Source: a phage. Taken from it: a DNA stretch of 64,000 bases. Positions 13,108 to 55,828 of the stretch are shown here, piece by piece; the first letter of the stretch is position 1, and each line of letters begins with the position of its first letter. Made by a program: the position numbers and the translations under genes. The notes below the pieces were generated by a model. That model was not told the DNA's origin, searched no databases, and worked only from the letters and a program-made list of their open reading frames with translations. The stretch lies in the NCBI GenBank assembly GCA_011911785.1, contig GCA_011911785.1_4084.1; one strand, 5' to 3'.

Positions 13108-13114
13108 GTTCTAC

Positions 13115-13143
13115 TTGACATCATGCCTCGTATGGGGTATGAT
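13115..13143 (+). promoter_or_regulatory. sigma70-like promoter (TTGACA-N17-TATGAT) heading the small-protein array
   Basis: TTGACA 13115-13120, TATGAT 13138-13143. Confidence 0.55.
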
Positions 13144-13177
13144 GTTTTTTCATATATGAACCTATGGAATTTGCCCT

Positions 13178-13987: not shown

Positions 13988-14208
13988 ACTGCATTAATAA
14001 CTTTGAATACGAGGCTCGCTCAAGGTGTGCATCTCAAAAAGAGAACCACATTTACTTCACTATGATGTACTTATCTTGGAATGAAATTGAAGAAATGGTT
14101 GCTGAAGTATGGCTGTTTGAATTCATGGGGACGCAGTATCAGAATAGGTTTGTGGGTGAGTATCTTAATGTTCTTATGAAACATATAGAAAGAAAGGGAA
14201 TGAACTAA
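13984..14208 (+). CDS. LGTNYQ-family small protein (74 aa)
   Basis: motif FMGTQYQNRFV; ATGA overlap. Confidence 0.6.
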   Translation: MNCINNFEYEARSRCASQKENHIYFTMMYLSWNEIEEMVAEVWLFEFMGTQYQNRFVGEYLNVLMKHIERKGMN

Positions 14209-14459
14209 TGAAAGTATTATCAAGCACTGAGTATCAATCTGCCCTATTCTCTCTTATCAATACCCTTCGCAAGAACAATGAACTTTATCCTTCCCCTGAG
14301 AATGATGTAGTTAATGGTGACGTGTTTCTACTTAAATTCGTTGGGACTAATAAACAAGTTATCTTCACTGATCGTTATATCAATGCACTAAGAAACCTTG
14401 TAGCGTATAAAACCCGCCAGGCCAAAAGAGAATGGAAGAGACAATGCGATCCAGAATAA
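14208..14459 (+). CDS. LGTNYQ-family small protein (83 aa)
   Basis: motif FVGTNKQVIF; TAATG overlap. Confidence 0.6.
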   Translation: MKVLSSTEYQSALFSLINTLRKNNELYPSPENDVVNGDVFLLKFVGTNKQVIFTDRYINALRNLVAYKTRQAKREWKRQCDPE

Positions 14460-14692
14460 ATCACATCATGTACGTTAAACTATTTCAGAAACTAATCCAC
14501 AAACACTATGATACAGTATCTGATAAACTCACTAATGATATCAGCAGACTTATTCACTGTGAAGCAGAGATGCTTGTACTGATGACGGGAGACGATACAC
14601 AAACAATCGCTAAGGCAATAGAGAACTATCTGGAAGCATATCAACAACATATAAGAACGGAAGTCTGGAGACGAGAGAATGAAAATCCTTAG
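14432..14692 (+). CDS. divergent LGTNYQ-family small protein (86 aa)
   Basis: degenerate motif LMTGDDTQTI; start may be ATG 14444. Confidence 0.5.
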   Translation: MEETMRSRINHIMYVKLFQKLIHKHYDTVSDKLTNDISRLIHCEAEMLVLMTGDDTQTIAKAIENYLEAYQQHIRTEVWRRENENP

Positions 14693-14894
14693 TGGGTATG
14701 AATATTACAGGCTGTTGCGAACTATACAAGCAAAAGTTTCTAGTATTTCTTTAAACAAATCTATTGCACAAGTGGACAAATGTGTTATAATAACTGAAAT
14801 GAAGCTATCTATCTTCATTGGGACAAACTATCAAAGCATCTACACTGACGCATGGTTAGCAAGTCTACGTAACAAGGTGATATCCAGAGAATGA
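14679..14894 (+). CDS. LGTNYQ-family small protein (71 aa)
   Basis: motif FIGTNYQSIY. Confidence 0.6.
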   Translation: MKILSGYEYYRLLRTIQAKVSSISLNKSIAQVDKCVIITEMKLSIFIGTNYQSIYTDAWLASLRNKVISRE

Positions 14895-15109
14895 AAAATT
14901 TACAAGGTTTTGAATATATTAAGCTTCTGCAAACCTGTGAAATCCAAAGAAGAAAGATTCAAAAGGCTAAAAGAATTACCGCAGAACGAAAGTTTACACT
15001 GATAACTGAAGTCTATGTAGAGGCACTCTTAGGCACAAACTATCAACAAACGTATATAGACCTATGGATCGATGCACTCCAGAAAGAGGTTAAAAGTAAA
15101 TGCAAATGA
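14891..15109 (+). CDS. LGTNYQ-family small protein (72 aa)
   Basis: motif LLGTNYQQTY; ATGA overlap. Confidence 0.6.
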   Translation: MKNLQGFEYIKLLQTCEIQRRKIQKAKRITAERKFTLITEVYVEALLGTNYQQTYIDLWIDALQKEVKSKCK

Positions 15110-15324
15110 TTAATTTAAGTAAAGATGAATATTATGTACGTCTTGCAAAAACTTATTCATTACGCAAGGCCATTTATGAAAGTCACATTATTGAACAATC
15201 AAATAAGTGGATTGTAGTAAATGAGATCAAGATGCTTTCAGTCTTAGGAACAAACTATCAAGCGAGTGCTGTACTGAAGGTCATTAATGCACTTCAAAAT
15301 GAGGTCCAAAGTAAATGCAAATGA
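15100..15324 (+). CDS. LGTNYQ-family small protein (74 aa)
   Basis: motif VLGTNYQASA; conserved junction AAATGCAAATGA. Confidence 0.6.
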   Translation: MQMINLSKDEYYVRLAKTYSLRKAIYESHIIEQSNKWIVVNEIKMLSVLGTNYQASAVLKVINALQNEVQSKCK

Positions 15325-15578
15325 TTAATTTAAGTCAAGATGAATATAACGAGCGACTTGCAAAAATCTCACCTAAACGTAATGCAATCTATCACAGCCA
15401 AGAAATTCAACACAGTAAGAAGATGATTATGTTTCGTGAGTTAAAGATGGGTGTCTTCTTAGGAACAAACTATCAAGAGACAGAAGTAAATCGCGTCATA
15501 ACCGAGTTACTCATGGAAATCAGAGGTAAGCTGTACTTTCATCAAATGACCCAACCACTGAGGTGTAATGAGAAATGA
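15315..15578 (+). CDS. LGTNYQ-family small protein (87 aa)
   Basis: motif FLGTNYQETE; same junction as 15100. Confidence 0.6.
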   Translation: MQMINLSQDEYNERLAKISPKRNAIYHSQEIQHSKKMIMFRELKMGVFLGTNYQETEVNRVITELLMEIRGKLYFHQMTQPLRCNEK

Positions 15579-15811
15579 ATAAAATTAATAACATCAACTT
15601 AGCAGAAAGATTTGATAGAATTGGGGAAGCTCTGAGAAGATACGATAAAGCATATGGTCATTTAAGCTTTACCATAGAAACGAGATATGCCCTTGAAGAA
15701 GAGTTTAAAATGCATAGTCTCTTAGGCACACAGTATCAAAATCAATATGTTCAAAATTGGATTGAACTTTTAATCCAAACAATTCATGTGAGGAACATAA
15801 AATGCAAATGA
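15575..15811 (+). CDS. LGTNYQ-family small protein (78 aa)
   Basis: motif LLGTQYQNQY; ATGA overlap. Confidence 0.6.
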   Translation: MNKINNINLAERFDRIGEALRRYDKAYGHLSFTIETRYALEEEFKMHSLLGTQYQNQYVQNWIELLIQTIHVRNIKCK

Positions 15812-16056
15812 TATACTTAACAGACGATGAAATAAAAGAAAGAATAATTAAATCCAGAAAACATACAAATCAACTTCCAAAAGACCCAAATCAAACCCCT
15901 GCTGAAAGGAGTGCAGAAGTATTATATCAACAACTCCTGTACTTTCTTGGGACTGATAGACAGGATTATTATGTTCGATCGATTCTTAGATATCTTAAAA
16001 TGACTATTCAGGAAAAGATACATGACCAAATATATAAAAATCTTAACAGTCAATGA
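15802..16056 (+). CDS. LGTNYQ-family small protein (84 aa)
   Basis: motif FLGTDRQDYY. Confidence 0.6.
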   Translation: MQMIYLTDDEIKERIIKSRKHTNQLPKDPNQTPAERSAEVLYQQLLYFLGTDRQDYYVRSILRYLKMTIQEKIHDQIYKNLNSQ

Positions 16057-16279
16057 ATATCATAAGATTATCATGAAGACTAATATTGAGAATTCTAAAA
16101 AATCAAATACCAAGTACATTCTGGAACACACATTTGAAGAACGACAATTAGCTTTAGTTGAAGCAAAACTTCTTGCACTATTAGGGACTAACTATCAAGA
16201 CGAGTACGTAAGAAAACTAATATACCTTTTAACTAAACATATAAGAAAAAGAAAAGCACATGAAACACTTGACAGATGA
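16022..16279 (+). CDS. LGTNYQ-family small protein (85 aa)
   Basis: motif LLGTNYQDEY. Confidence 0.55.
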   Translation: MTKYIKILTVNEYHKIIMKTNIENSKKSNTKYILEHTFEERQLALVEAKLLALLGTNYQDEYVRKLIYLLTKHIRKRKAHETLDR

Positions 16280-16490
16280 CGAATACGGTGTTATCATCCT
16301 TGATGTTATCAATAAAGAATACCATAGGAAACAACGATACGCTTGTTATGAAGATAAACAGCTTTCTATAGCTGAACAACAATTAGTTCATTTATTAGGA
16401 ACAAACTATCAAGAACAATGCACTGAACGTTACCTGTATCTACTGTCGAGGAAAGCAAAAAGAGATTATGAAAATTTTAAACGAAGGTGA
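16260..16490 (+). CDS. LGTNYQ-family small protein (76 aa)
   Basis: motif LLGTNYQEQC. Confidence 0.6.
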   Translation: MKHLTDDEYGVIILDVINKEYHRKQRYACYEDKQLSIAEQQLVHLLGTNYQEQCTERYLYLLSRKAKRDYENFKRR

Positions 16491-16683
16491 TGAAGTAATA
16501 TTACTTATAGAGAATTCAAGTAAATTCTTAAACATATCACTGTCTGATATAGATGAAGATGACAAAGAAGTACTGAGAGCAGATTTAAGAGTACTGTTAC
16601 ATCTCGGAACAAACCTACAAGAGCAATTCGTTGAGGACTACATCGATGAACTTAAAGAATCAGTACTGAGAAGATGCAAATGA
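16468..16683 (+). CDS. LGTNYQ-family small protein (71 aa)
   Basis: motif HLGTNLQEQF. Confidence 0.6.
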   Translation: MKILNEGDEVILLIENSSKFLNISLSDIDEDDKEVLRADLRVLLHLGTNLQEQFVEDYIDELKESVLRRCK

Positions 16684-18378: not shown

Positions 18379-18624
18379 ATGTTAAAATTTTTAAATTTTC
18401 TTATCGTCTTGTGTATTGTTCTTGGGATTGCACCGTTTGTATTAGCGTATCTGGATTCAGATGAAATGCACAAGATGAATTGCACAAAGACAGGACAGAG
18501 TAGAAAAGAGACGGTTATGATGCCCGTAACGGTTATTGTGAATAACATGCCGATTACAAACATGGTCCCTACCCTAACGACAACGTACCAGTACTCTTGC
18601 GATGACGGAGAGAGATGGAGATGA
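18379..18624 (+). CDS. hypothetical membrane protein (81 aa)
   Basis: N-terminal hydrophobic helix FLNFLIVLCIVLGIAPFVLAYL; RBS AGAGGG. Confidence 0.45.
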   Translation: MLKFLNFLIVLCIVLGIAPFVLAYLDSDEMHKMNCTKTGQSRKETVMMPVTVIVNNMPITNMVPTLTTTYQYSCDDGERWR

Positions 18625-18958
18625 TGCGATAATGCGTAAGATCAATTGTATAAAAAGAGCGAATACATGTTTCATTGCGTTGACCAATGTACCGGGTGGG
18701 TCTGGTGTTAAGATATTTGAGTACAATAAAGTTGATAATTGTTTCTATTGGGTAGAAGGTATCAAATCATATGAAAATACGATAGCAGTACCGAATCTAG
18801 TTGATATCTCTGAAGAAGAAGAGTTTCAGTACATGTTAGTACACGATGATTCTTTTGGGTTGACATACAAAGAGATGAAGGAAGTACAAAGGCAGATGAT
18901 ATCATGTATGAATATTTCTAAGCATTTCCTTCAAAATATTCATCCAATTTACGTATAA
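18602..18958 (+). CDS. FQxS-motif family protein (118 aa)
   Basis: motif EEEEFQYMLVHD. Confidence 0.6.
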   Translation: MTERDGDDAIMRKINCIKRANTCFIALTNVPGGSGVKIFEYNKVDNCFYWVEGIKSYENTIAVPNLVDISEEEEFQYMLVHDDSFGLTYKEMKEVQRQMISCMNISKHFLQNIHPIYV

Positions 18959-18967
18959 GAGATTAAT

Positions 18968-19303
18968 ATGAAATTCAACATTCATAGAATTAATTCCGGT
19001 TGTATATTTGCTTATACGCATGAGAATTACAAGAAGTACATGAATCATGAAGTACATTATGTTTTTGAGGACGGTAAAGAATATTTTGCTTATTTGAGTC
19101 CCAGGAGTTTAGGTAAGTACGAGTTGCTTCAGGATCTTTCTCTTATGCAGGAAGATGAATTATTTCAGTACAGTCTAATTCATGACCCTTATATGTTTGA
19201 TATAGATATTATGTGCAGTTTACAGAAGAGGATGAAAGAAGTTTGGGATTCGATTAAAAGAGGTGATTGTATAGAATATGATAGTATACAAGAAGATGCC
19301 TAA
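18968..19303 (+). CDS. FQxS-motif family protein (111 aa)
   Basis: motif EDELFQYSLIHD. Confidence 0.65.
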   Translation: MKFNIHRINSGCIFAYTHENYKKYMNHEVHYVFEDGKEYFAYLSPRSLGKYELLQDLSLMQEDELFQYSLIHDPYMFDIDIMCSLQKRMKEVWDSIKRGDCIEYDSIQEDA

Positions 19304-19496
19304 CGGATATGAATTGAAGTACAGACAGTTTATTCGAAATGTAGATTCAGATCCTTTTAATGTTAAAATGGCAGAGTTTGATTTATTATTTTATCTAGGA
19401 ACGAGAGCACAGCCACAATTCGTTGATGCATACATAAGGGCTTTACGAACAGAGATAGTATGCACACCAAAGGAGTCTAAATGTACAAAAATGTAA
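19278..19496 (+). CDS. LGTNYQ-family small protein (72 aa)
   Basis: motif YLGTRAQPQF. Confidence 0.55.
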   Translation: MIVYKKMPNGYELKYRQFIRNVDSDPFNVKMAEFDLLFYLGTRAQPQFVDAYIRALRTEIVCTPKESKCTKM

Positions 19497-19738
19497 ACCA
19501 TCATTTGTACGCATCGAAGTACAGGGATTTTTGTTTACAAGGGGGCGATGAAGATTTTGCTCTGCGATTATCGGAATTTAATATGTTATTTTATCTTGGT
19601 ACATCAGTACAAGAAGAAATGGTACAGAAATTTATCAAGCACCTTGAGCGAAAAATTCATACGCAAATTTTGGTTGTTAAGTTACAGAATGAGATAAATG
19701 AATACAATGCAGAATCTAACAATAGTACAGGATCTTAG
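19481..19738 (+). CDS. LGTNYQ-family small protein (85 aa)
   Basis: motif YLGTSVQEEM. Confidence 0.55.
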   Translation: MYKNVNHHLYASKYRDFCLQGGDEDFALRLSEFNMLFYLGTSVQEEMVQKFIKHLERKIHTQILVVKLQNEINEYNAESNNSTGS

Positions 19739-20099
19739 ACCAGTAATAATGATGTTAAATGCAAGACGAGATTTATGGCACGAAATGCATAACAAGAAGG
19801 ATTCATTTGCACAAATCAATTTAGTCTTTCAGGAGTTAATCCAGAGTGCATTGGGTGTTATCGAACCAAAATACAAAGATGGTATATTCTGTGTAAAGAA
19901 TGCAGTTCGTCCTCATGCAATTCCAAGGAAAATTAAGTTAGCCAGATTAACATTTGACGAGAGGGATTTCTTCAGTTATAATCCCAGTACAGCTTTATAT
20001 TTTATTCCTGATTCAGACAAATATCATCCTATCCATTACGGATGGATTATGTCTTATATAGTAAATGAAACGGAATACCCTATTAAATGGGAAAGATGA
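19698..20099 (+). CDS. hypothetical protein (133 aa), possibly a divergent array member
   Basis: ORF in array context; weak LVFQELIQSAL segment. Confidence 0.5.
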   Translation: MNTMQNLTIVQDLRPVIMMLNARRDLWHEMHNKKDSFAQINLVFQELIQSALGVIEPKYKDGIFCVKNAVRPHAIPRKIKLARLTFDERDFFSYNPSTALYFIPDSDKYHPIHYGWIMSYIVNETEYPIKWER

Positions 20100-20275
20100 T
20101 GATAGATACAAAGACATTAAATGCATTACAGGATTCATTATTAGATAGTATTAAGCTGTATTACAATATGCATTTGAGGGGTGGTATCAATGATTACAAT
20201 TATTATTTGAGTGTAATTATATTTGAGCATCTTTCAGTACAGGATAGAATTTTACACAAGTACAAACATTATTGA
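20087..20275 (+). CDS. hypothetical protein (62 aa)
   Basis: ORF coupled to neighbours. Confidence 0.4.
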   Translation: MGKMMIDTKTLNALQDSLLDSIKLYYNMHLRGGINDYNYYLSVIIFEHLSVQDRILHKYKHY

Positions 20276-20286
20276 GGAAACAAAAT

Positions 20287-20646
20287 ATGTTCAATAAAAT
20301 CATGTTCATTTTAACATTTGTGTTTTTATCATTCACAAACACCGCTCATGCAGCACAGGCAGTACAGGCATCATCGGATGTACCGTTATATGAAACATAC
20401 AAATTTGATTGCAGATTACAGAATAATGAAATAATCAATATCTTTTTACACAATACAGAAGTACCTTATTTGCAGATTGAAGCAACGAAGTACATGTATT
20501 ATGGTACGAATTCGGTACAGGAATTTTTATTTAAACACACAGAACAGGATGTAATTATATCATTGCAGTACGTTGATAGTTCATTGTCTTTAATGCATTT
20601 CAAGAATGCAGAGGGATTAGTTACAGTGCTCAAATGCTATAGGTAA
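20287..20646 (+). CDS. predicted secreted protein with Sec-type signal peptide (119 aa)
   Basis: N-terminus MFNKIMFILTFVFLSFTNTAHA-AQA; RBS GAGGAAA; contains YYGTNSVQEF segment. Confidence 0.55.
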   Translation: MFNKIMFILTFVFLSFTNTAHAAQAVQASSDVPLYETYKFDCRLQNNEIINIFLHNTEVPYLQIEATKYMYYGTNSVQEFLFKHTEQDVIISLQYVDSSLSLMHFKNAEGLVTVLKCYR

Positions 20647-20652
20647 TAATAT

Positions 20653-21168
20653 ATGAATGAAATTGAATTATTAACGCACAAGATTAGTACAATAATGCTT
20701 ATGCTCAAAAATAATCATCCTATACATAAGTACATTGATATAGATGAATTACGCATAGAAGATAGGCATGGTAAATTATCGTTTATGTTTCACAATGCAA
20801 ATAATGCAGGGAATGTTAACGTTTGTTTTGCAGCATTTACCCAAGCCAATCCAGTACAAACATCTCCTGTTGTATACGAAAATAAAGAAGGGTATTTGTG
20901 GGTAAACACAAACGATTATTTCTTTTATGATTTGAAACAAGATGATGAAGTAGAAGAACGAATTGATTTAATTGATATTAGTACAGATTGTAGTGCTGAA
21001 TTATTTCAGAAATCGTTATTATATAGTCCTCGTCAAATGCATTATCTAAAGTTATTCAGTTCATTGTACGCGAATCCTTTAATTAAGGGTTTTAAATTTT
21101 ATATAAAAGTTCCTGACATTCAAGCAGTTTATGATATTTTGATGCAAGGATATAGTTATGAAGTATAG
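20653..21168 (+). CDS. FQxS-motif family protein (171 aa)
   Basis: motif AELFQKSLLYS. Confidence 0.65.
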   Translation: MNEIELLTHKISTIMLMLKNNHPIHKYIDIDELRIEDRHGKLSFMFHNANNAGNVNVCFAAFTQANPVQTSPVVYENKEGYLWVNTNDYFFYDLKQDDEVEERIDLIDISTDCSAELFQKSLLYSPRQMHYLKLFSSLYANPLIKGFKFYIKVPDIQAVYDILMQGYSYEV

Positions 21169-21466
21169 AATGCTCTATACCAAAGATATGATTTATGTTG
21201 AATTAGAAGGCGATGAAGACGGTTGGAATTTGATTTATTCATGTAGTTCAGGTTGGTACATGGCACATTTAAATGATAACGAAGTCACAGATTATTTTGT
21301 AGATTTCAATACATTATCCGACGAAGAATTGTTTCAACAGCAATTAGTGATTGACACAGGTGGATATGATGTGTTATTATTAAAAAAGATACAGAAAGCT
21401 GTTATGAATTTTAATGCACATGTATCCGAATGGGAAAGGAAATATTATGACCTCGAAGTACAATAA
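21158..21466 (+). CDS. FQxS-motif family protein (102 aa)
   Basis: motif DEELFQQQLVID. Confidence 0.65.
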   Translation: MKYRMLYTKDMIYVELEGDEDGWNLIYSCSSGWYMAHLNDNEVTDYFVDFNTLSDEELFQQQLVIDTGGYDVLLLKKIQKAVMNFNAHVSEWERKYYDLEVQ

Positions 21467-21815
21467 TACATTTGATATTAATAAGTTAACAGAATGGTTT
21501 TATAATATTGAAATTGAAGCTATTCCGTATCACAAGTACGAACAACGTGATTTACGTAGTATAGATATTCGTGAGTTGTACGAGTATTATCAGAGTGCAT
21601 TAGAGATGCATAAGATATTTTTGAGTACAGAATACATGACACGTTGTAAGGATGCGTTTGATGAATTCAAGAAGAATGATAATTTAGTACAGAAATATGT
21701 AATAGCAAAGTACATGTACCTTCAGGGAATTACAAGTACAGTGCAATTCAATACAGTTCTTGCTTTAGTTGAGATTATTTTATTATGCAAAAATGTAAAG
21801 TGGAATTTAGTTTAG
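21447..21815 (+). CDS. hypothetical protein (about 122 aa), divergent array member
   Basis: track ORF 21414; segment ELYEYYQSALEMH. Confidence 0.5.
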   Translation: MTSKYNNTFDINKLTEWFYNIEIEAIPYHKYEQRDLRSIDIRELYEYYQSALEMHKIFLSTEYMTRCKDAFDEFKKNDNLVQKYVIAKYMYLQGITSTVQFNTVLALVEIILLCKNVKWNLV

Positions 21816-22282
21816 AGAGTGCTGTGCAGTACGTTAAGTACATTGAAGGTGTATACAATATAATGAAAGCATATGAAGGAAAAGGATATGCTTCAATAAA
21901 TCACAAATATGATTATATTAACAATCAGTTAGAAGAATCAAATTCAGGTAAAGTGCTTTTTAGTTTTTTATATTTTGCTCCTGACAATGTATATCCTGAT
22001 GAAAATGATCTTCGTCTGGAAAGAGATGACCTTTGGTATATGTATCCAGGACGTGATAAGCCAATGGATGATGCTTTGTTGGAAATCAAATACAGTCCAG
22101 AACCCTTGACACCGGAGTTGTGGTTCCAGTACAGTACAATACATGAAGAAATTGATATCTTTTTCTACGCAATATACAAGATGCTTTATGAGAATGGTGT
22201 GCTTAAGAATCATGTATATTTTTATTTCCAGCAAATGAAAAATGTATATGAGTCCTTTTACCCAACCGAGCCTGTATCGTAA
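21785..22282 (+). CDS. FQxS-motif family protein (165 aa)
   Basis: motif ELWFQYSTIHEE. Confidence 0.65.
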   Translation: MQKCKVEFSLESAVQYVKYIEGVYNIMKAYEGKGYASINHKYDYINNQLEESNSGKVLFSFLYFAPDNVYPDENDLRLERDDLWYMYPGRDKPMDDALLEIKYSPEPLTPELWFQYSTIHEEIDIFFYAIYKMLYENGVLKNHVYFYFQQMKNVYESFYPTEPVS

Positions 22283-22308
22283 GATATGGGCTTTTTTTCG
22301 TTTTGGTA

Positions 22309-22338
22309 TTGACACAGTACAGAATCGGTGCTAATATA
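22309..22338 (+). promoter_or_regulatory. sigma70-like promoter (TTGACA-N18-TAATAT)
   Basis: TTGACA 22309-22314, TAATAT 22333-22338; preceded by a T-run. Confidence 0.5.
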
Positions 22339-22362
22339 CCTGAACATTTTTAAGGAGAACCC

Positions 22363-22897
22363 CATGCAAACATCGCAAAAATCGCAAGTACAGAAAGCAA
22401 TGTCATTCAATGAAATTGGTGCATTTAAAGATAAGATTATTGATTGTATTGAATACGCGATTTGTAGTAATATCAAAAGTATAGAGGTATTTAACAAGTC
22501 AAATCGCTCTTACCATATGATGTACATTGCAAACAATAATGGTATCATTCCATTTGTTTCGGATAGTACAATATGGTTCGCTTGCGATGTGAAAAAATAC
22601 ACAATAGGTTCATATGTCTTCGGTAAACATGGTGATCTAATTATTCCTGAGCATTGTATGCAAGAAGAAGAATATTTTCAAAAGCAATGTGTACATGAAC
22701 CATTAGAGATGGTTGCTTTATATATGATACCTTATATCTCTAAATGTGTTCATGAGAATAAAGCTCCGTGGAATCATGAATTTGTATCGTTGAAGTTATT
22801 GTATAATGTTTTAGTACAATATTATGATTACAGACACGAGGGTACAATCAGCGATGTATGGGATTTCGAAAATTTAAGGGTAAAAACATATGAATAA
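22363..22897 (+). CDS. FQxS-motif family protein (178 aa)
   Basis: track ORF 22328 trimmed to ATG after RBS AAGGAGA; motif EEEYFQKQCVHE. Confidence 0.65.
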
Positions 22898-23528
22898 TTT
22901 TCCAAGAAATGCTTCACCGTATGAGGTGATGAAGTTCATGGAGCCTCATGTTCCTTATATGTTTGAAATGCTAAAGAAGTTCAATGCTATTTTCCCTGAG
23001 AATTCAAAATTGGAGATTCCATTTGATTCCGCATCCAGATACAGTGCATCCTGTGGTAAATTAGTTTTAGTTATCGGTAGTGACAGAATAGGTTTCAGGG
23101 AAGTATTTGACACGTCATTAGCATTTGGTATATTCGATAACAACAATAACATCACATACATTGACAAGTACATTTGCGACATAGCAGGTTCCTCTAAGCC
23201 GGATTCCTTTGTGGATTCAGTTGCAGATTATGGTGTTTCAAAAGATGGTAATGTAATAAGTACAAAGACGTTCATATCATTATCGTTAGAAGATGACATA
23301 TGTTACATTGCAGGGCAAGAGTACGAGGGTGTAGAGGAAGTGCTTTTTCAAATGTCCTTAGTACAGAAGGATATGGTGGACCCTACCGAAATCCTGAAGT
23401 TGTGCAAATATGCGAATGAGTACAAGAAATTGATTGAACCTGGGTTTAGTTTCAGTGCACAGAGTCCGCATTTTCAGATAAAAGTATATGAAGATTTCAT
23501 TTTGAAGTTAAAAGAGATTGTGTTATAA
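22890..23528 (+). CDS. FQxS-motif family protein (212 aa)
   Basis: motif EEVLFQMSLVQKD. Confidence 0.65.
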   Translation: MNNFPRNASPYEVMKFMEPHVPYMFEMLKKFNAIFPENSKLEIPFDSASRYSASCGKLVLVIGSDRIGFREVFDTSLAFGIFDNNNNITYIDKYICDIAGSSKPDSFVDSVADYGVSKDGNVISTKTFISLSLEDDICYIAGQEYEGVEEVLFQMSLVQKDMVDPTEILKLCKYANEYKKLIEPGFSFSAQSPHFQIKVYEDFILKLKEIVL

Positions 23529-23580
23529 TACGCAATAACATGCAATAACACACAATACAACAAAGACGGGAGTGATTTAG

Positions 23581-24117
23581 ATGATCCAGCACAAACATTT
23601 TGAGTACGAGTTCGCTGACAATTTAGTAAAAATCGTACAGGCGTTTGAGGCTGGGGATTTTGACCACATCTATCCTAAGCACAAGGAAGGATGGCTTGAG
23701 CCTAAGAGCGATATTGAAAAGTATCCATCTATTGTGTATTACAGGAGAGATACGGTAATGCACGCTGTAGGTGAGAAGATGCAGTTAGAGTATTGTCTTT
23801 TGTTCAATGCTATTACATCGGCTACATCAGCATCTGAAGAGTTCGCTCCAGTGAATTGGATTCGTTATTTGGATATGAGCAAGAGAGAGGAAGAAACCTT
23901 TTTTGGTTTAACAAAGCACGTTGATATTGCAACCTTGAATCCTAACATCCTGAGTCCTGAAGAATATTTTCAGGAGTCCTTAGTACAAGATCCTTATATT
24001 TTACAGGTGCAGCAAGTATATAATGTATTACGTGCTAATGTGAAAACGAATTTCTTTTTAGCTTTAACGTGGTACGATAGGTTAGTAAAAGATCTCAAAG
24101 AGATTAAGGGGGAGTAA
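23581..24117 (+). CDS. FQxS-motif family protein (178 aa)
   Basis: motif PEEYFQESLVQD; RBS GGGAG. Confidence 0.65.
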   Translation: MIQHKHFEYEFADNLVKIVQAFEAGDFDHIYPKHKEGWLEPKSDIEKYPSIVYYRRDTVMHAVGEKMQLEYCLLFNAITSATSASEEFAPVNWIRYLDMSKREEETFFGLTKHVDIATLNPNILSPEEYFQESLVQDPYILQVQQVYNVLRANVKTNFFLALTWYDRLVKDLKEIKGE

Positions 24118-24683
24118 TGCTGGACCTTCAGGACATAGAAAGTACATGCAAAGCGATAGAAGATGATTTAGAATACATCAAGGGGTTGTATTTAATTGTA
24201 GATAGGATTTACAAAAATCCGAATGCGTTTCAGGAAACGTACCAGCATGATAAATTTCGACACGAACCAATCATTACGCTTATGTCGGATTTATCGATTT
24301 ACGAAAGAAAATCCAACAAATCACATAGTGTATTATTTGTGAGTACAGATAGATTTTACAGTACAACATCAATTTGTTCAGATGTATCATGTGCATGGTT
24401 CAGTTCAAATGAATATATAACAGTTAAAAATAATGGCGAAAATGAGAAATTAAAAGTAAGTGAGCTTATTGATTTGATGCCATATAGTCCTGATGTAGTG
24501 TTTCAGTACAGTACATTGCACGATTATAATTCAATACGATATCGTTATTTTGTTAAGCATTATTATGATACCTTCGGGGAGTTAACGGAGAAGTTAACGT
24601 TGAGATTTGACCGTGATATTGATCTCGTTGCAATGCTTCAGTACATACAGTACGTGTTTGATAAGGACGCGGAAAAGGGGTAA
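24117..24683 (+). CDS. FQxS-motif family protein (188 aa)
   Basis: motif DVVFQYSTLHD; TAATG overlap. Confidence 0.65.
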   Translation: MLDLQDIESTCKAIEDDLEYIKGLYLIVDRIYKNPNAFQETYQHDKFRHEPIITLMSDLSIYERKSNKSHSVLFVSTDRFYSTTSICSDVSCAWFSSNEYITVKNNGENEKLKVSELIDLMPYSPDVVFQYSTLHDYNSIRYRYFVKHYYDTFGELTEKLTLRFDRDIDLVAMLQYIQYVFDKDAEKG

Positions 24684-24895
24684 TTTTAAAATGATAAATA
24701 TAGGCTTGTTTTTGGGGGCGTTTTGGGGGGTCAAAAAAATTTTCGCTGAAAAACATGTTAAGGTATATGTTTAATATAAAATTTTATATTGTGTTTTTCA
24801 GAGTACAGTTCATGTTTCCTTAAACAAAAAATACCCCGCCGCCGAACGTGCTCCTTATATTGTAGTTTACCTTATTAATTATAGTAGAGGTTATT

Positions 24896-25252
24896 ATGAG
24901 CAATGATTTTGCTATTCACAGTTTTTTCTACAAAAAGGTTGAGTTCTATTGTAATCTCGTTAAGGGTGATACCAATCATTCGTTGGACCAATATATTAAG
25001 TACACCTCAAATGGATTTTCTTTTATTGATTACGGTCGAGTGGGTGGTGGTGTTAATGAACCTATGCTGGACTATACAGAAATGGATGAGGCTACACTAT
25101 TTCAGGAATCATTAGTGTTCGATAAGAAATATATTTGTACACTAGATGAAGTTATTGGTATTCAGAATATCATGAAAGAACACTCTGCGAAGTGCATGAT
25201 AGAATTAACTCAAGATAAGCACAAGACTGTTCAGTACCATTTCAATCTTTAG
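24896..25252 (+). CDS. FQxS-motif family protein (118 aa)
   Basis: motif EATLFQESLVFD; RBS AGAGG. Confidence 0.65.
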   Translation: MSNDFAIHSFFYKKVEFYCNLVKGDTNHSLDQYIKYTSNGFSFIDYGRVGGGVNEPMLDYTEMDEATLFQESLVFDKKYICTLDEVIGIQNIMKEHSAKCMIELTQDKHKTVQYHFNL

Positions 25253-25263
25253 GGGTCTTAACT

Positions 25264-25608
25264 ATGACATACAATGAATACCGTGAAATAGATCTTCTCC
25301 AGAATACATTATATGAAATTGAAGATTTAATGCACGGATGGACAAGTCTTTCTTTCTTTAATGAAATGTTCGAAGAAATAAAAGTAGTACTACAGAAAAA
25401 ACATAATGGTACTAAAATTAAAATAAAGACTTTCACTGGAGAAGTCTGGTGCGGAGAAATTGTGAAATACATTATAACTCGCAATAACGCATCATTCTGT
25501 TTGAATACTGGTCATTACAGAAATCATTTCAACAATAGCAGTACTCAAGTTATTTCCGAGGAAGAATACAATGAGCACTGTAATAAACTTCTTAAGAGTA
25601 GATTCTAA
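25264..25608 (+). CDS. hypothetical protein (114 aa)
   Basis: ORF in array without the FQ motif. Confidence 0.5.
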   Translation: MTYNEYREIDLLQNTLYEIEDLMHGWTSLSFFNEMFEEIKVVLQKKHNGTKIKIKTFTGEVWCGEIVKYIITRNNASFCLNTGHYRNHFNNSSTQVISEEEYNEHCNKLLKSRF

Positions 25609-50499: not shown

Positions 50500-50519
50500 A
50501 TTCTTGGTGATATAATGAT

Positions 50520-50552
50520 GAGTGGCAATATATCTTTGTCACTCTTTTTTTT
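50520..50552 (+). terminator. rho-independent terminator
   Basis: 9-bp stem GAGTGGCAA/TTGTCACTC followed by T8. Confidence 0.7.
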
Positions 50553-51191
50553 AATCCTGAAAGGTTCCATATGGAAATGATTAAGAGCCTAATCCACTCG
50601 AAAATGTAGAGGGTAGATGAGTAGTCCTTTCAGTACGAACAGCAGATGAAACCCGTCAGATGTGGGCATATTATGAACCCCTCACGGCAATGCGGCTGTA
50701 TAAAGAACTCCGATAAGCACACAGAGAGTTCCTAGATAGACATATAAGGATCGCACCTTACCAGATTTGCTAAGGGAGATTTCATTAGAAATTGCGGTCA
50801 ACTATTTGTACAAGATAGTTGCGTCCAAAATTTGGTGAAATCAAATACCAGTACTGTTCATATGGTACTCGTATTATGTGTCGGGATGTTTAAGACCGAC
50901 GACCGTTGCTACAAGAACCGCGATAGAGAGAAACAGAGCAACCCGCTTTCGCCTCGTTAAGAGAATTCGTGATATGAAATATGTGAAGACCACCAGCGTC
51001 AAATTTTAATTCTTTCCCCCAGTGGGGGGATGAAATATGCTCTTCCAAACCTCGTCAATATTAATTAAAACCATTTAGTACTATTAGAATTATTCAGAGC
51101 GTAGCGATGAATTAATTCTACTGATGTTGATTGAGTGCTAACGAAATCAACATCGAGTACATTATTTGATGTTTCCTAAAAAGGAATAATA
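50553..51191. other. ORF-free, GC-richer intergenic island (candidate structured RNA or regulatory region)
   Basis: about 640 bp with no ORF of 60 codons or more on either strand; visibly less AT-rich than flanks; contains hairpin CCCCCAGTGGGGGG. Confidence 0.35.
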
Positions 51192-51734
51192 ATGCCTGTA
51201 TTTTCAAAGAACAAAACAACAGAGATCATTTATAAATCAAAAGAATTTGAAGTACTAGAAGAATTTGATAGAGATTCATTTGATGGATATAAAATAGTAA
51301 AAGAAAAAGGAACTATCAATCATATTGTTGAGTACATGGGAGGTGTAGAACTAGCAAAAATCACTTGTAGACCTACAAAAAACCCAGTAATTTTTTCTGT
51401 TCGCTATGGACATTACGGAGAAGAGCGATATAATTCTAATACAGTATCAAGGAAATTCCATGTTGTAGATGGGAAATTAGAAGGGGAATCCAGACAATAT
51501 AGTGTTCTTGGACTTCCTTTGTCAGTGAAGTACTTCCATCAAGGACATGATGTTACTATTGAAATTATGGATTTTATTGGGTTCAATGGTACAGTAGATG
51601 ACTTCAACTTCTATGTATTAGCAGAAGATGAAGCATTCAATATAATGATGAAGTACGGTTCTAGATTTAAATTTTTATATGAGTACAACCTGGACAGTAA
51701 ACTGTTCGATAATATCTTACAGAACTGTCTATAA
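51192..51734 (+). CDS. hypothetical protein (180 aa)
   Basis: RBS AAGGAA upstream. Confidence 0.6.
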   Translation: MPVFSKNKTTEIIYKSKEFEVLEEFDRDSFDGYKIVKEKGTINHIVEYMGGVELAKITCRPTKNPVIFSVRYGHYGEERYNSNTVSRKFHVVDGKLEGESRQYSVLGLPLSVKYFHQGHDVTIEIMDFIGFNGTVDDFNFYVLAEDEAFNIMMKYGSRFKFLYEYNLDSKLFDNILQNCL

Positions 51735-51751
51735 TTAAAGGACTTAATGAT

Positions 51752-52279
51752 ATGGGGAAAAAGGATAATCCCACAAAAAACAAACATTCAGTACACTTCA
51801 GTACTGGAAAAGATAACTGGACTACTCCAAAGGAATTCTTTGAAGATTTGGATGAAGTCTGGGGATTTACACTTGATGCAGCATGTGTTAAAGAAACTGC
51901 ATTATGTGACAAGTTTTTTACACCGGAAGATGATAGTCTTTCACAGGATTGGGGAAACAATATCGTCTGGTTAAACCCCCCTTACAGTGACTTAAAACCT
52001 TGGCTATCTAAGGCAGTTGATGCTTATAATAATGGTGCAACAGTACTGATACTTGTTCCATCACGTACTGATACAATTGCATTTCAGGAATATGCATCTA
52101 AGCTTTGTGACTGTATTTGTTTTATTAAAGGACGTTTAAAATTTGGCATCCCTGAAGAACCAGATAAAAAGACTGATAGTGCTCCATTCCCTAGCTGTTT
52201 AATAGTACTGGATAAGTACTTAACACCAGCTAAAATCAACCATCTTAAATCTATCGGTCAGGTGATGAAGAATATATGA
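51752..52279 (+). CDS. dam: phage Dam-family DNA N6-adenine methyltransferase (175 aa)
   Basis: catalytic NPPY motif (WLNPPYSD) and overall organisation of small phage N6-adenine methyltransferases. Confidence 0.8.
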   Translation: MGKKDNPTKNKHSVHFSTGKDNWTTPKEFFEDLDEVWGFTLDAACVKETALCDKFFTPEDDSLSQDWGNNIVWLNPPYSDLKPWLSKAVDAYNNGATVLILVPSRTDTIAFQEYASKLCDCICFIKGRLKFGIPEEPDKKTDSAPFPSCLIVLDKYLTPAKINHLKSIGQVMKNI

Positions 52280-52815
52280 AAGACACTTGTATAGTAACGT
52301 ATGGACGTATAAATCCAGTGCATTTGGGACATGGGTTAATTTTTGATAAAGCCGTATCGATGAAAGAACAATACAATGCTGATTTAAAAATATACCTTAG
52401 TACTACACAAGATTGTATCAAGAATCCATTACCACCTGAATTGAAAATGTATTACACTGAGGGTTTCTATCCAAGAATTCAACACAACATCAGTACTGAA
52501 GATAATCTTTTTGATATTATGCAGGAATTGAATGGTAAGTACAGTGATGTTCTTTTCATATGTGGTTCAGACAGGATAGAAAACTTTCAAAATGTACTTG
52601 ACAGATACAATGGAAACTTGTATAATTTTCGTAATATAAAAGCAATCCAAGCTGGTATAGACCGAACCGTTAGCAAGTACAGTTCAACTGAAATGCGTTC
52701 TTTTGCTAAGCGTGATGATTTTGAAAGCTTCAGTTCTTATCTACCAGGTGATGATAATGACTTGAAAATAAAACTTTTTAAAGATGTAATAAAATACATG
52801 AGGAAAGAACCATGA
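52276..52815 (+). CDS. putative nucleotidyltransferase (HxGH / ISxT cytidylyl- or adenylyltransferase fold, 179 aa)
   Basis: N-terminal GRINPVHLGH (HxGH motif) and later SKYSSTEMR (ISSTxxR-like); ATGA overlap with dam. Confidence 0.55.
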   Translation: MKDTCIVTYGRINPVHLGHGLIFDKAVSMKEQYNADLKIYLSTTQDCIKNPLPPELKMYYTEGFYPRIQHNISTEDNLFDIMQELNGKYSDVLFICGSDRIENFQNVLDRYNGNLYNFRNIKAIQAGIDRTVSKYSSTEMRSFAKRDDFESFSSYLPGDDNDLKIKLFKDVIKYMRKEP

Positions 52816-53105
52816 CAGTACTCTTCAAAACTAACCCAGTACTATGGGAACAAAATGAAAGTTCAGGATATCGTAATATCCAAGTAGAATACAAAGGTAA
52901 CACTATTGTATCGGTTGTTGCGAACAAAACCCTAGGTGAATGGACATGTCAAGTGGTTCCAATGGGTTATTCATATCGTCTGGATGAAGTTGAATTTCTC
53001 GCTAATCTTTATTCACAAATGCAGTTCATTATGAACTTTCTTTGCACTGATACTGATCTTACACACGATGATGTAATCAACTTACTGGACAATTTACATG
53101 TCTGA
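52812..53105 (+). CDS. hypothetical protein (97 aa)
   Basis: ATGA overlap with previous ORF. Confidence 0.5.
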   Translation: MTVLFKTNPVLWEQNESSGYRNIQVEYKGNTIVSVVANKTLGEWTCQVVPMGYSYRLDEVEFLANLYSQMQFIMNFLCTDTDLTHDDVINLLDNLHV

Positions 53106-53388
53106 AATAAATGATATCACTTCTATCATATTGGATGAGTGTATTTTAGGATCATACGAAACATTTTCAGTACTAGACGGTATAGAACTATGGCACATTA
53201 AATGCCGTGGTATCAATGGCTTCAGTACTGAATGTAAAAAACTCTTGACTTCGTGCAGTACTGAAGGTAAACTGTGTACAGTGAGGTCATCACCGAGTCT
53301 TTCATATACTGGATATATAATTTATCTTGGAAGTGATCATTTATTCTATCTCACCAAGGAGAACTATTTTGACAAATACAAACAGTAA
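53098..53388 (+). CDS. hypothetical protein (96 aa)
   Basis: ORF coupled to previous. Confidence 0.5.
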   Translation: MSEINDITSIILDECILGSYETFSVLDGIELWHIKCRGINGFSTECKKLLTSCSTEGKLCTVRSSPSLSYTGYIIYLGSDHLFYLTKENYFDKYKQ

Positions 53389-53986
53389 TACATATTTTCG
53401 TTACCTACGCCTTGGGCTATCACTTCGTCCAATTCGAGGTAAATGTGATTCTCTTGCTGATTTAGATTATGCATATTCCATTTATGATGATGGTGTACAG
53501 TATGTTCTGGGTGACTTCGGTGAGTTTGAAGAAACCAATGACAGTACTGGTATTATGGACGGCATTGAGAATCTAGATTGCATCGTAAACAGTTCAAGAC
53601 ATGATGTAATCAAAGAAATTCATAAATTTATTGAAACTAACACAGCAAAAACTACATGGTGTTTAGTAGGTACAGATCCACAAATGGCAATTGCTTTTGG
53701 TAATGAAGATGGATATGTAGCACAACTTATCATGGATTTTGCATCTAAAGAGAAATTTGAAGAATTCAAAGCAAAGATGGTTCAATCACTTCTTCAGATG
53801 GGTATCCCTGAAGATAAGATGCCAGAGATTCAAGATATTGAAGAATTTGTCTTAATTCCTTCAGATGAAAAATATGACGTATTATTCAGTACTCTGAACA
53901 TTCCAGGTGTTATCGTTGAAAGCTTTGATGACGATGATGGTGAAATCTACATCGAACTGGATGATGATGACGACGACGATGAATAA
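53369..53986 (+). CDS. hypothetical protein with poly-Asp C-terminus (about 205 aa), probable TTG start
   Basis: RBS AAGGAGA 6 nt upstream of TTG 53369 (track starts 53327); C-terminus DDDDGEIYIELDDDDDDDE. Confidence 0.5.
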   Translation: MTNTNSNTYFRYLRLGLSLRPIRGKCDSLADLDYAYSIYDDGVQYVLGDFGEFEETNDSTGIMDGIENLDCIVNSSRHDVIKEIHKFIETNTAKTTWCLVGTDPQMAIAFGNEDGYVAQLIMDFASKEKFEEFKAKMVQSLLQMGIPEDKMPEIQDIEEFVLIPSDEKYDVLFSTLNIPGVIVESFDDDDGEIYIELDDDDDDDE

Positions 53987-53991
53987 TAATT

Positions 53992-54019
53992 ATGCCCGAC
54001 TTTGTTCGGGCATCTTTTT
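53992..54019 (+). terminator. rho-independent terminator
   Basis: stem GCCCGA/TCGGGC followed by a T-run. Confidence 0.65.
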
Positions 54020-54031
54020 AAGGAAAAGTAA

Positions 54032-54304
54032 ATGGACTATCGAGTACTGAATAGAACATATAAAGCTTTATACAAAACATATATTGAAAGTAAAGTACAT
54101 AATCCTATCATTTATAAAAATCCAGTTTATATTATATGGAATGAATATTTTACAATGATTCAAAATTACTTTTACTCTAACGAAATCTTTATAGATGGTG
54201 AAATGCGTAAGCTAACACGCGTTGATAGTATAGGTGGTGAAATTGTGTTATTCTATACTGATTCTATTATTGGACAACAATCTATAAATTTAGAGATATT
54301 ATAA
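54032..54304 (+). CDS. YIGK-motif ~90-aa paralog family member (90 aa)
   Basis: first of tandem paralogs; RBS AAGGAAAAG. Confidence 0.55.
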   Translation: MDYRVLNRTYKALYKTYIESKVHNPIIYKNPVYIIWNEYFTMIQNYFYSNEIFIDGEMRKLTRVDSIGGEIVLFYTDSIIGQQSINLEIL

Positions 54305-54570
54305 TGAATTATAAGGATTTACATTTCACCTATAAACTAACATTTTATATGTATCGTTACGCTGATAACAACTTAATGGATAATGCATTTTATCATCGTT
54401 TGTGGAGTGATTATATAAAATCTTTACGTGAACATTTTATAGGTACTATAATTCAATACGAAGGTAAAACAGTAAAAATATTTCAAGTTGATAGTTACAA
54501 CGGGGATCTATGCTTCAGGGGTAGAGATTCTAGTGATGGATTACATGAGATTTATATCTATGAATTATAA
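54304..54570 (+). CDS. YIGK-motif family member (88 aa)
   Basis: N-terminus MNYKDLHFTYK; segment REHFIGTIIQYEGK. Confidence 0.6.
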   Translation: MNYKDLHFTYKLTFYMYRYADNNLMDNAFYHRLWSDYIKSLREHFIGTIIQYEGKTVKIFQVDSYNGDLCFRGRDSSDGLHEIYIYEL

Positions 54571-54835
54571 GGATTTACAATTCACGTACAAAATTCTTCA
54601 TGAACAATATGAACGTGGTGAAGGAATATTAACTTACGATGAACGAGATTTTTTTCTTACATTGTGGTGTGAATATTTGGCAATGATTAACGAGATTTTT
54701 GTTGATAAAGAATATATGATTGACGACATGACTGTACGTATTATCAGAATTAAAAGTTATAATGGAAGTCTTGTTGGAATTTACTATAACAATGAAAAGG
54801 CGAAAAGCGGATTTGTTGATTTGGAGTACCTATGA
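54560..54835 (+). CDS. YIGK-motif family member (91 aa)
   Basis: track ORF 54488 trimmed to MNYKDLQFTYK start. Confidence 0.55.
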   Translation: MNYKDLQFTYKILHEQYERGEGILTYDERDFFLTLWCEYLAMINEIFVDKEYMIDDMTVRIIRIKSYNGSLVGIYYNNEKAKSGFVDLEYL

Positions 54836-55095
54836 ACTATCATGATTTACAATTCACATATCAACTTTTATATGATGATATGAATAACGAATTAGGTTTC
54901 TACTATGAAGTACGTAATAAAATATGGTCAAATTATCTATCTGAGATACAACATCATTTTATAGGACTTCCAATACGTAGAAATAATAAAAACTATCGTT
55001 GTACTGATGTAGTAAGTCATAGAGGTAGGTTGCGTTTAGAATTCTACCGCAGAGACGGGGACTTCATTGGTATAAATTTACTGGATTTTAAATGA
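54832..55095 (+). CDS. YIGK-motif family member (87 aa)
   Basis: N-terminus MNYHDLQFTYQ; segment QHHFIGLPIRRNNK; ATGA overlap. Confidence 0.6.
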   Translation: MNYHDLQFTYQLLYDDMNNELGFYYEVRNKIWSNYLSEIQHHFIGLPIRRNNKNYRCTDVVSHRGRLRLEFYRRDGDFIGINLLDFK

Positions 55096-55379
55096 TGAAA
55101 AACAACTTAAAGGAAATACAAGTATTTTATAGCTTCTTATACTTGTCATATGTAACAGATGAGTACTATGAAAGTGTGTATTATTTTTTATGGCAACATT
55201 ACCGTACTATAGTAAGAGATTTATATATAGGAAAATCTATCATATCCAATGGTGAAAAATGTACCTGTACTGATGTTGTTAGTTTTAATGGTTCTTTAAC
55301 ACTGTGTTTCAGATGCGATAATAATAGTGGGTCATTTTCATTAAACGTATATCAGTTAGAAGGAATAAATTTTGAATAA
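55092..55379 (+). CDS. YIGK-motif family member (95 aa)
   Basis: segment RDLYIGKSIISNGEKCTCTDVVS. Confidence 0.6.
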   Translation: MMKNNLKEIQVFYSFLYLSYVTDEYYESVYYFLWQHYRTIVRDLYIGKSIISNGEKCTCTDVVSFNGSLTLCFRCDNNSGSFSLNVYQLEGINFE

Positions 55380-55572
55380 GTGTCCATATTGTAACAGTAC
55401 TCAATTAGCTCGTTTCCGCTTAGATTCAGACTGGGCCACTGGTGCTGGGGATTTCTTTCCCATCAATGATGATGCGGAATACACTGAAGAACAGCACAAA
55501 GATTTTGATAAATCATGGCGACCAGACATTGAGTGCATTTATTGCCTTAATTGTGAGCGTGTACATGACTAA
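55372..55572 (+). CDS. small Zn-ribbon protein (66 aa)
   Basis: CPYC...CIYCLNC paired-Cys motifs. Confidence 0.5.
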   Translation: MNKCPYCNSTQLARFRLDSDWATGAGDFFPINDDAEYTEEQHKDFDKSWRPDIECIYCLNCERVHD

Positions 55573-55828
55573 AGCTGAACTAATAGTTCATACATATAAA
55601 ATGATAGCCAGTACTGAGTTATCCTGTGGTGCAGATAATCCAGTACTGGACTATTTTATAGAATCTTTGAAAGAACATTATATTGGTAAATCACTGATTC
55701 TTAATAATATTAATTTCACTGTAAAGGATGTAGCACCTGGAAAAAACGTACTAATAGTATGTGTTACTTCATCTGATAACCCAGTATACCCAATAACAAT
55801 AATTTTTGAGGTATTAGGTGATTTATGA
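55565..55828 (+). CDS. YIGK-motif family member (87 aa)
   Basis: track ORF 55442 trimmed to ATG overlapping the upstream stop; segment KEHYIGKSLILNNI. Confidence 0.5.
   Translation: MTKAELIVHTYKMIASTELSCGADNPVLDYFIESLKEHYIGKSLILNNINFTVKDVAPGKNVLIVCVTSSDNPVYPITIIFEVLGDL

Follow-up and report, generated by a model that had tools for sequence, protein, structure and literature searches.

The stretch of DNA analysed here, called the window throughout, comprises 64,000 nucleotides of a phage genome (GenBank assembly GCA_011911785.1, contig GCA_011911785.1_4084.1), and the subject of the analysis is a pair of adjacent genes for a small N6-adenine methyltransferase (hereafter the methylase) and a nucleotidyltransferase of the HIGH superfamily, listed with their surrounding features in Table 1. 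By megablast the region 50500-54500 is 99.2% identical to Escherichia phage A4 (ON286972, 355 kb), identifying the window as part of an Asteriusvirus jumbo coliphage. Among the matches listed, 13 other Asteriusviruses align to about half of this region at 81-83% identity and the remainder only to its first ~620 bases. In A4 the two genes occur in the same order and with the same flanks as A4_406, annotated 'DNA N-6-adenine-methyltransferase' (94.9% identical), and A4_407, annotated 'putative cytitidyltransferase' (100% identical). An earlier note on this DNA had reported the two open reading frames (ORFs) and the ATGA by which they overlap, and both were recovered exactly.

Table 1. Features of the gene pair and its surroundings, with positions given in the window
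Feature	Position	Strand	Basis or remark
Hairpin followed by T8, terminator-like	50520..50544	+	Upstream limit of the pair's transcription unit
ORF of 180 aa, PHROG 16210 (no assigned function)	51192..51734	+	First gene of the conserved four-gene block
Shine-Dalgarno AAGGA	51738..51742	+	9 nt before the methylase ATG; read from the sequence
Methylase, PF05869 'phage Dam' N6-adenine methyltransferase, 175 aa	51752..52279	+	ORF list, Pfam, PHROG, PADLOC, alignment
Shine-Dalgarno AGGTGA for the nucleotidyltransferase	52260..52265	+	Inside the 3' end of the methylase gene; read from the sequence
ATGA overlap, methylase stop and nucleotidyltransferase start	52276..52279	+	ORF list, sequence
HIGH-superfamily nucleotidyltransferase, 179 aa	52276..52815	+	ORF list, PHROG, family alignment, model
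ORF of 97 aa, PHROG 14956 (no assigned function)	52812..53105	+	Last gene of the conserved block
Terminator-like hairpin	53992..54013	+	Closes the six-ORF unit

The description of the first gene as a small phage-type N6-adenine methyltransferase with an NPPY motif holds. The protein scores 113.9 bits against the Pfam family PF05869 Dam (gathering threshold 28.1; E 8.4e-33) and matches PHROG 111 'DNA methyltransferase' (1.8e-57) and the REBASE-derived PADLOC model 'orphan methyltransferase' (1.2e-34), with NPPY at residues 75-78 (nt 51974-51985). In NCBIfam its 92.6 bits narrowly miss the equivalog cut-off of TIGR01712 (97.05), leaving it a family member without equivalog status. Among 56 aligned homologues no variation is seen at N75, P77, T108, G127, R128, P147 or S148 and very little at P76 and Y78, and the family blocks TP..F, PSRTDT, KGRLKF and APFPS are conserved in the window methylase. 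Jumbo-phage methylases alone have a loop insertion of about 10 residues after KGRLKF and share a C-terminal extension, LT..K...LK.LG.VMKN (helix-strand), both of which are missing from the small-phage members. Identity to the Stx-phage Dam is ~31% over 89% of the length. The VT2, HP1 and T1 Dam enzymes, which we take to belong to PF05869, are reported to be GATC DNA methylases. Like these three (M.EcoVT2Dam, HP1 Dam and T1 Dam; PF05869/TIGR01712), the window methylase is small, has NPPY and lacks a separate target-recognition domain, and it differs from them by the jumbo-clade insertion, the C-terminal extension and the sub-cut-off TIGR01712 score.

The 175-aa protein would accordingly act as an orphan, S-adenosylmethionine-dependent N6-adenine methyltransferase that methylates phage DNA at a short site, for which GATC is the default guess by analogy with the characterised family members. 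GATC is moderately depleted in the window (146 sites against 200-257 expected), and the loop insertion and C-terminal extension peculiar to the jumbo-phage clade make a site other than GATC possible. The non-specific adenine methylases Hia5/Hin1523 were considered and rejected as relatives, as they form a different subfamily of DPPY enzymes, whose motif I is FxGxG and whose motif IV lies close to residue 194. A motif scan of the window found no second ORF with an amino-methyltransferase signature (D/N/S)PP(Y/F/W/H), and neither the methylase nor the nucleotidyltransferase obtained an informative hit when searched as a single sequence against PDB sequences.

For the second gene, the signatures HxGH and ISxT had been claimed. 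The first stands as HLGH at residues H16-H19 (nt 52321-52332), whereas the C-terminal signature is SSTEMR at 136-141, within Y135-S-S-T-E-M-R141 (nt 52678-52698); the 'IST' at residues 72-74 was rejected as the ISxT motif, not being conserved across the family. The protein thus shows the features of the HIGH superfamily, (H/T)xGH after strand 1, a C-terminal motif of the ISxTxxR type and a Rossmann-like fold, and an AlphaFold model of the HIGH-type Rossmann fold was obtained with a pLDDT of 94.4 and a pTM of 0.88. In Pfam the window protein falls below threshold, with 14.6 bits against 21 for PF01467 and 15.5 bits for FAD_syn, whereas homologues at 32-40% identity exceed the PF01467 threshold (Kaldavass 37.2 bits, P-SSM2 44.7 bits) and many family members carry PF01467. 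Strong matches were found to two PHROG families labelled 'cytidyltransferase', PHROG 3041 (5.5e-54) and PHROG 395. Across 64 diverse members no change occurs at R11, P14, G18, H19, S42, N50, L52, G97, D99, R100, G127 or S136 and hardly any at N13 and R141, and since these key residues are kept the catalytic apparatus is intact.

As to the kind of reaction, the model lies nearest to nicotinamide mononucleotide (NMN) adenylyltransferases (NMNAT) and to phosphopantetheine adenylyltransferase (PPAT), which are the cofactor adenylyltransferases of nicotinamide adenine dinucleotide (NAD) and coenzyme A (CoA), and the cytidylyltransferases (glycerol-3-phosphate, choline-phosphate and related enzymes) are not its nearest relatives in fold or sequence. 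Sub-threshold NCBIfam matches among the family members point the same way, with nadD in 42 of 64, nadR in 35 and coaD in 11, and the motifs GRF.P..xGH and KNP[LF] are common to the family and a phage NadM. No equivalog cut-off for NMNAT/NaMNAT is reached by the window protein, its best score being 20.2 bits against 112.45 for TIGR00482. Identity to the NadM-type/archaeal NMNATs (PDB 2qjt, 1f9a) is 13-18%, and the protein has no Nudix domain, in contrast with the NadM-type comparison set that includes the phage NadM CBB_113. PPAT (CoaD), judged from the alignment, has no obvious counterpart of the invariant D99-R100 or of Y111-N-G. The best PDB sequence match of the family profile is a protein of the TmcAL family (E 1.8e-4), which are tRNA-acetylating HIGH enzymes. 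Because fold, motifs and NCBIfam matches point to NMNAT/PPAT-like adenylyltransferases, the label 'cytidyltransferase' reads as a carry-over of the Pfam family name, and of the earlier double designation, cytidylyl- or adenylyltransferase, the adenylyl half is favoured and the cytidylyl half is not.

We therefore take the protein to be a predicted NMNAT/PPAT-like adenylyltransferase of a distinct, phage-specific family, as judged from its sequence and model. Such a HIGH-motif enzyme would most likely join AMP from ATP to a phosphorylated small molecule. Of the individual reactions, the adenylylation of NMN to NAD+ is rated highest, tentatively and at somewhat less than even odds, and reactions of the PPAT, FMNAT or sugar-phosphate type would be the alternatives. 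An NMNAT-like rather than a cytidylyltransferase reading narrows the useful assays and would tie the family to NAD+ reconstitution by phages.

The family is large, with 2,683 proteins in a profile search, and is present in most sequenced T4-like cyanophage records. By tblastn it was found in 562 phage records, about 460-470 of which are T4-like cyanophages of Synechococcus and Prochlorococcus and the others Rak2-like and PA5oct-like jumbo phages. The cyanophage 'cytitidyltransferase' of T4-GC 190 (e.g. P-SSM2 gp194) belongs to the same family as the window protein at 32-39% identity; the cyanophage proteins often have 260-424 aa, with extra N- and C-terminal regions lacking a Pfam match, and have no Dam neighbour. 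A cyanophage study from 2022 states that the function of the 'cytitidyltransferase' 'remains unclear' and detected the protein in the virion proteome (PMC9146016), and a targeted literature search on the phage 'cytitidyltransferase' gave nothing relevant.

The genomic context of NAD+ metabolism was compared between nucleotidyltransferase-bearing phages. In CBB a NadM-type NMNAT/Nudix protein (CBB_113) and NAMPT lie between dCMP deaminase and Sir2, ~20 kb from the nucleotidyltransferase, and BF, Kaldavass, K64-1 and Vibrio phage 2.275.O also carry NadM and NAMPT, as found through NAMPT matches. At the corresponding slot Asteriusvirus E9.1 has a protease, an HslV-like peptidase, Sir2 and a stand-alone Nudix protein, and neither NadM nor NAMPT. 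No Asteriusvirus was among the 40 best NAMPT matches, and it is from these matches and the E9.1 slot that the lack of NAMPT, NadM and NadR in Asteriusviruses is drawn. NAMPT was likewise missing from the three nucleotidyltransferase contexts of T4-like/cyanophage type that were sampled, where the neighbours are MazG, PurH, RNR, helicase and UvsX. A genomic association with NAMPT, as in a NARP2-type pathway, was not found, the NAMPT of CBB being paired with a separate NadM. Since it occurs both with and without NAMPT, the nucleotidyltransferase does not depend for its presence on NARP2 or NARP3, the NAD+ salvage modules known from phages; NARP3 (PnuC and NadR) was set aside as a different system.

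The pair was found in Asteriusvirus (window, A4 and E9.1), Alcyoneusvirus K64-1, Eneladusvirus BF, Erwinia phage Kaldavass, Mimasvirus CBB and three jumbo-phage contigs of IMG/VR. Among these relatives the methylases are 41-68% identical and the nucleotidyltransferases 36-58%. Both genes belong to a block of four (180-aa ORF, methylase, nucleotidyltransferase, 97-aa ORF) that is conserved in at least six lineages, with four named genera, of enterobacterial Rak2-like jumbo phages. The 180-aa protein is 40% identical to gp062 of Serratia phage BF, with synteny kept in BF, Kaldavass, CBB and K64-1, and the pairs CBB_72/73, GAP32 YP_006987171/YP_006987172 (named in the CBB record), BF gp063/064 and that of K64-1 are orthologous and have the same flanking genes. 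The window has the ATGA overlap, and its relatives instead show a gap of 3-6 nt; after correction of the start codon for BF and CBB, the distance between the methylase stop and the nucleotidyltransferase start ranges from -4 to +6 nt across six of six lineages. The GenBank starts in BF (locus 4001-4033) and CBB (locus 4074-4091) are apparently 18-33 nt too far downstream and drop the conserved first strand (MNKTCIMMYGR / MKKTCIMVYGR). This spacing makes the translational coupling proposed earlier plausible, whereas the ATGA overlap itself is typical of the genome and not peculiar to the pair, because the same 4-nt ATGA-type overlap occurs at 28 of the 153 junctions of adjacent + strand ORFs in the window (crude ORF calling).

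Outside this clade the two genes separate. The methylase family was found in 2164 phage records, mostly of small phages, with Synechococcus phages outside the ten commonest groups. In IMG/VR the 80 best PF05869 loci and the 80 best nucleotidyltransferase loci (927 kb) were inspected within a radius of 10 kb: 77 of the former have no nucleotidyltransferase, the remaining three belonging to the same jumbo clade, and none of the latter, which are cyanophage-like, has a PF05869 gene. The Rak2-related Vibrio jumbo phage 2.275.O has the nucleotidyltransferase, adjoining a MORN-like relative of the 180-aa protein, and no PF05869 methylase in the 43 kb examined, and Pseudomonas phage MIJ3 has the nucleotidyltransferase and no PF05869 methylase in the 8.5 kb examined.

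We infer from these results that the two are functionally independent enzymes, probably translationally coupled, an orphan Dam-type methylase and a phage adenylyltransferase sitting side by side in an inherited block, a reading to which a probability of about 55% is given. They would be co-transcribed as part of the four-gene block of the enterobacterial Rak2-like jumbo phages, and inherited gene order is the simplest reading because the flanking genes are equally syntenic and the pair separates outside the clade. The gene pair itself is already known, being annotated in GenBank for A4, GAP32, CBB, BF and others, and the refinements are that it is not a general two-enzyme module, that 'cytidyltransferase' may be relabelled NMNAT/PPAT-like, and that the PCIF1-like fold of the mini-Dam receives independent structural support from the model.

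Several points weigh against this interpretation. Adjacency and tight spacing have outlasted divergence to 36-44% identity in at least six lineages, as they would in a functional module. The structure nearest to the methylase model is the RNA cap methylase PCIF1/CAPAM (PDB 6irx) at 14% identity, a likeness that earlier literature had pointed out. The assignment of the second enzyme as NMNAT is weakened from two sides, as CBB, BF and K64-1 already have canonical NadM and NAMPT, and as the Asteriusviruses and cyanophages retain the gene in the absence of NAMPT, as far as the inspected regions and best matches show. Profile comparisons fail to separate NMNAT from PPAT, hhalign of the family against the phage NadM and against E. 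coli PPAT being equally weak and confined to the N-terminal 50-60 residues, and the predicted activities of both enzymes come from sequences and models. As for PCIF1/CAPAM, it has at least 482 residues and a helical RNA- and cap-binding domain, unlike the phage methylase, and its eukaryotic RNA substrate gives no evidence of an RNA substrate for the latter. Whether PF05869 mini-methylases with a PCIF1-like fold act in jumbo phages on DNA, on RNA or at a new site such as AGTACT is what is at issue in the alternatives.

An unlikely alternative, the first of three to be weighed, is that the methylase targets AGTACT, or another site containing GTAC, as a dense and clade-specific mark of N6-methyladenine (m6A), the nucleotidyltransferase being unrelated. 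The enrichment of AGTACT raised in the earlier note is real, at about 11-12x: the window has 231 sites against 18.8 +/- 4.3 in shuffles, 10.75x the zero-order expectation, and they occupy all three reading frames as well as intergenic DNA. The consensus extends to CAGTACTG in the window phage, with looser flanks in other genera. The palindrome contains adenines, and it is enriched 7.6-12.8x in every sampled lineage with the jumbo methylase clade (window, A4, E9.1, BF, Kaldavass, CBB, K64-1 and the three IMG/VR jumbo contigs), and it is not enriched in Vibrio Rak2-like, PA5oct-like and cyanophage relatives having no such methylase in the loci examined, with observed/expected ratios of 0.63x in Vibrio 2.275.O, 0.71x in MIJ3 and 0x in P-SSM2. 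The private loop insertion and C-terminal extension could moreover alter specificity. Nothing but this co-distribution connects the methylase with AGTACT, and as all positive lineages form a single clade it amounts to one evolutionary event. No enrichment is seen at the 77 small-phage loci whose PF05869 methylases have 39-48% identity, a methylation site need not be enriched at all, and the characterised members of the family are reported to be GATC-specific. Other methyltransferases are also found in these phages, a C5-cytosine enzyme in phAPEC6 and two more in Sharanji, and the known ScaI methylase is a cytosine methylase. That the jumbo-phage branch of the small Dam family switched its specificity to the AGTACT/CAGTACTG palindrome as a clade-specific self mark is rated as quite unlikely. 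If it did, the 350-kb genomes would have one m6A-markable site per ~280 bp, and the mark might serve discrimination between phage and host DNA or temporal control, the latter being conceivable because the early-gene arrays just inside the terminal repeat are free of AGTACT. In the literature searched there was no relevant report of AGTACT enrichment in jumbo phages or of their methylation motifs.

The distribution of the motif along the window is uneven in two places. A stretch of 12.5 kb with 81 sites gives way sharply to 4.1 kb (~12470-16569) that have none, and no more than 13 GTAC, and this drop falls where an array of some 25 tiny ORFs (65-87 aa) begins. By homology with fEgEco12, which has a direct terminal repeat of 20,993 bp, and with the annotated repeat of vB_Ec-M-J, the drop is placed where the left terminal repeat ends on its inner side, so that the window from 1 to ~12.5 kb probably lies within that repeat. 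Further inside, 18596-25386 (6.8 kb of + strand ORFs without assigned function) has 0 AGTACT and almost no GTACT, and its + strand carries 55 AGTAC, of which 45 are AGTACA, so that the motif is retained on one strand and excluded from the other. PHROG searches of this AGTACT-free region matched only families without assigned function.

A second alternative, which we consider quite unlikely, makes the small 'Dam' an RNA adenine methylase like PCIF1, placed with the nucleotidyltransferase in a neighbourhood of RNA processing or repair. The methylase has already been discussed in a comparative paper, in which Iyer et al. 2021 (PMC7824862) described 'a distinct family of DAMs ... (AMM43637.1)' and proposed exactly such a role, as possible RNA methylases. 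AMM43637.1 is CBB_72, the orthologue of the window methylase in phage CBB, where the next gene is CBB_73 'cytitidyltransferase'. RNA ligase 1 and polynucleotide kinase are encoded 7-9 kb downstream in A4, E9.1 and CBB, P-SSM2 has a tRNA ligase gene four genes away from its nucleotidyltransferase, and the TmcAL match described above would fit a role on RNA as well. These repair genes are nevertheless several kilobases off, with many genes between, the PADLOC models derived from REBASE class the family as orphan DNA methyltransferases, and it is GATC in DNA that the VT2, HP1 and T1 enzymes are reported to methylate.

The state of the DNA itself bears on the remaining alternative. GCGC is absent from the window (0 against 37-54 expected) and from a further ~200 kb of enterobacterial Rak2-like loci, and has a normal frequency in the Vibrio and Pseudomonas relatives. 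Most G+C-rich 6-bp palindromes in the window are likewise at 0, including CAGCTG, CTGCAG, GGATCC, CCATGG, GGTACC and CGTACG. The restriction enzymes EcoRI and HindIII are sensitive to m6A. DNA of the relative fEgEco12 is cut as predicted by ten enzymes, these two among them (PMC13070987). Because fEgEco12 cuts normally and the window avoids restriction sites, a bulky or non-specific base modification is unlikely, and both results fit site-specific methylation only.

The joint action of the two enzymes on DNA or on a nucleotide precursor to give a modified base, as the earlier note had suggested, is very improbable, for although adjacency and tight spacing are kept in at least six lineages with four named genera, and both genes lie in one transcription unit between two terminators, each gene is far oftener found alone, the pairing is confined to one clade with syntenic flanks (77 of 80 and 80 of 80 loci unpaired, and Vibrio 2.275.O with the nucleotidyltransferase and without the methylase), the fold groups with cofactor adenylyltransferases, fEgEco12 DNA is cut normally, and the extreme avoidance of restriction sites speaks against broad protection by modification. 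To our knowledge, no DNA hypermodification pathway uses a nucleotidyltransferase of the HIGH type. A general hypermodification module would recur across unrelated phages, and co-occurrence was seen in only 3 of 80 and 0 of 80 loci; the structural grouping with NAD/CoA enzymes is moreover an outcome that the note itself had named as part of what would refute its proposal.

The pair itself matters little; the RNA upstream of it, the strand asymmetry of AGTAC, the change of motif at the inferred boundary of the terminal repeat and the absence of GCGC are more unusual. The transcription unit is bounded by the two terminator-like hairpins of Table 1, the first of which covaries across genera (alignment columns 31-58). 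The 692-bp 'gap' 5' of the gene block is a candidate for a conserved structured RNA at 50545-51100 (+), with a core at ~50557-51055 (~500 nt). This candidate aligns at the nucleotide level in nine phages of the Rak2-like clade with four named genera, although identity between the flanking proteins is only ~40%. Of its 83 predicted pairs, 39 carry compensatory double changes against 7-11 in slid controls, and 95.9% of cells are paired, a value reached by 0 of 500 shuffles. Compared with Rfam it has no match at E <= 1. It is single-copy in the window and is the sole part of 50.5-54.5 kb that megablast matched in all Asteriusviruses.

Around the pair, a Pfam search of the small ORFs gave no match, and neither the nucleotidyltransferase nor any of the four neighbouring ORFs compared with PADLOC matched a defence-related family. 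In A4 the methylase is separated from the 180-aa gene by an extra ORF of 615 bp (A4_405, 204 aa; A4 locus 9252-9866) that has no Pfam match. Neither the window, at its 51734/51752 junction, nor E9.1 has this ORF, which is therefore a strain-level indel. The start of the 97-aa ORF overlaps the nucleotidyltransferase stop by another ATGA (52812-52815). The coding sequence of the nucleotidyltransferase contains, at 52598-52626 (+), a sequence TTGACA-17 nt-TATAAT that agrees with the sigma-70 consensus at 12 of 12 positions and could be an internal promoter for the small genes downstream. Beyond the closing hairpin, a tandem array at 54032-55828 has five or six paralogous small ORFs (87-95 aa), two of which were tested against Pfam without a match; several begin with MNY.DL.FTY, and several are joined by ATGA overlaps.

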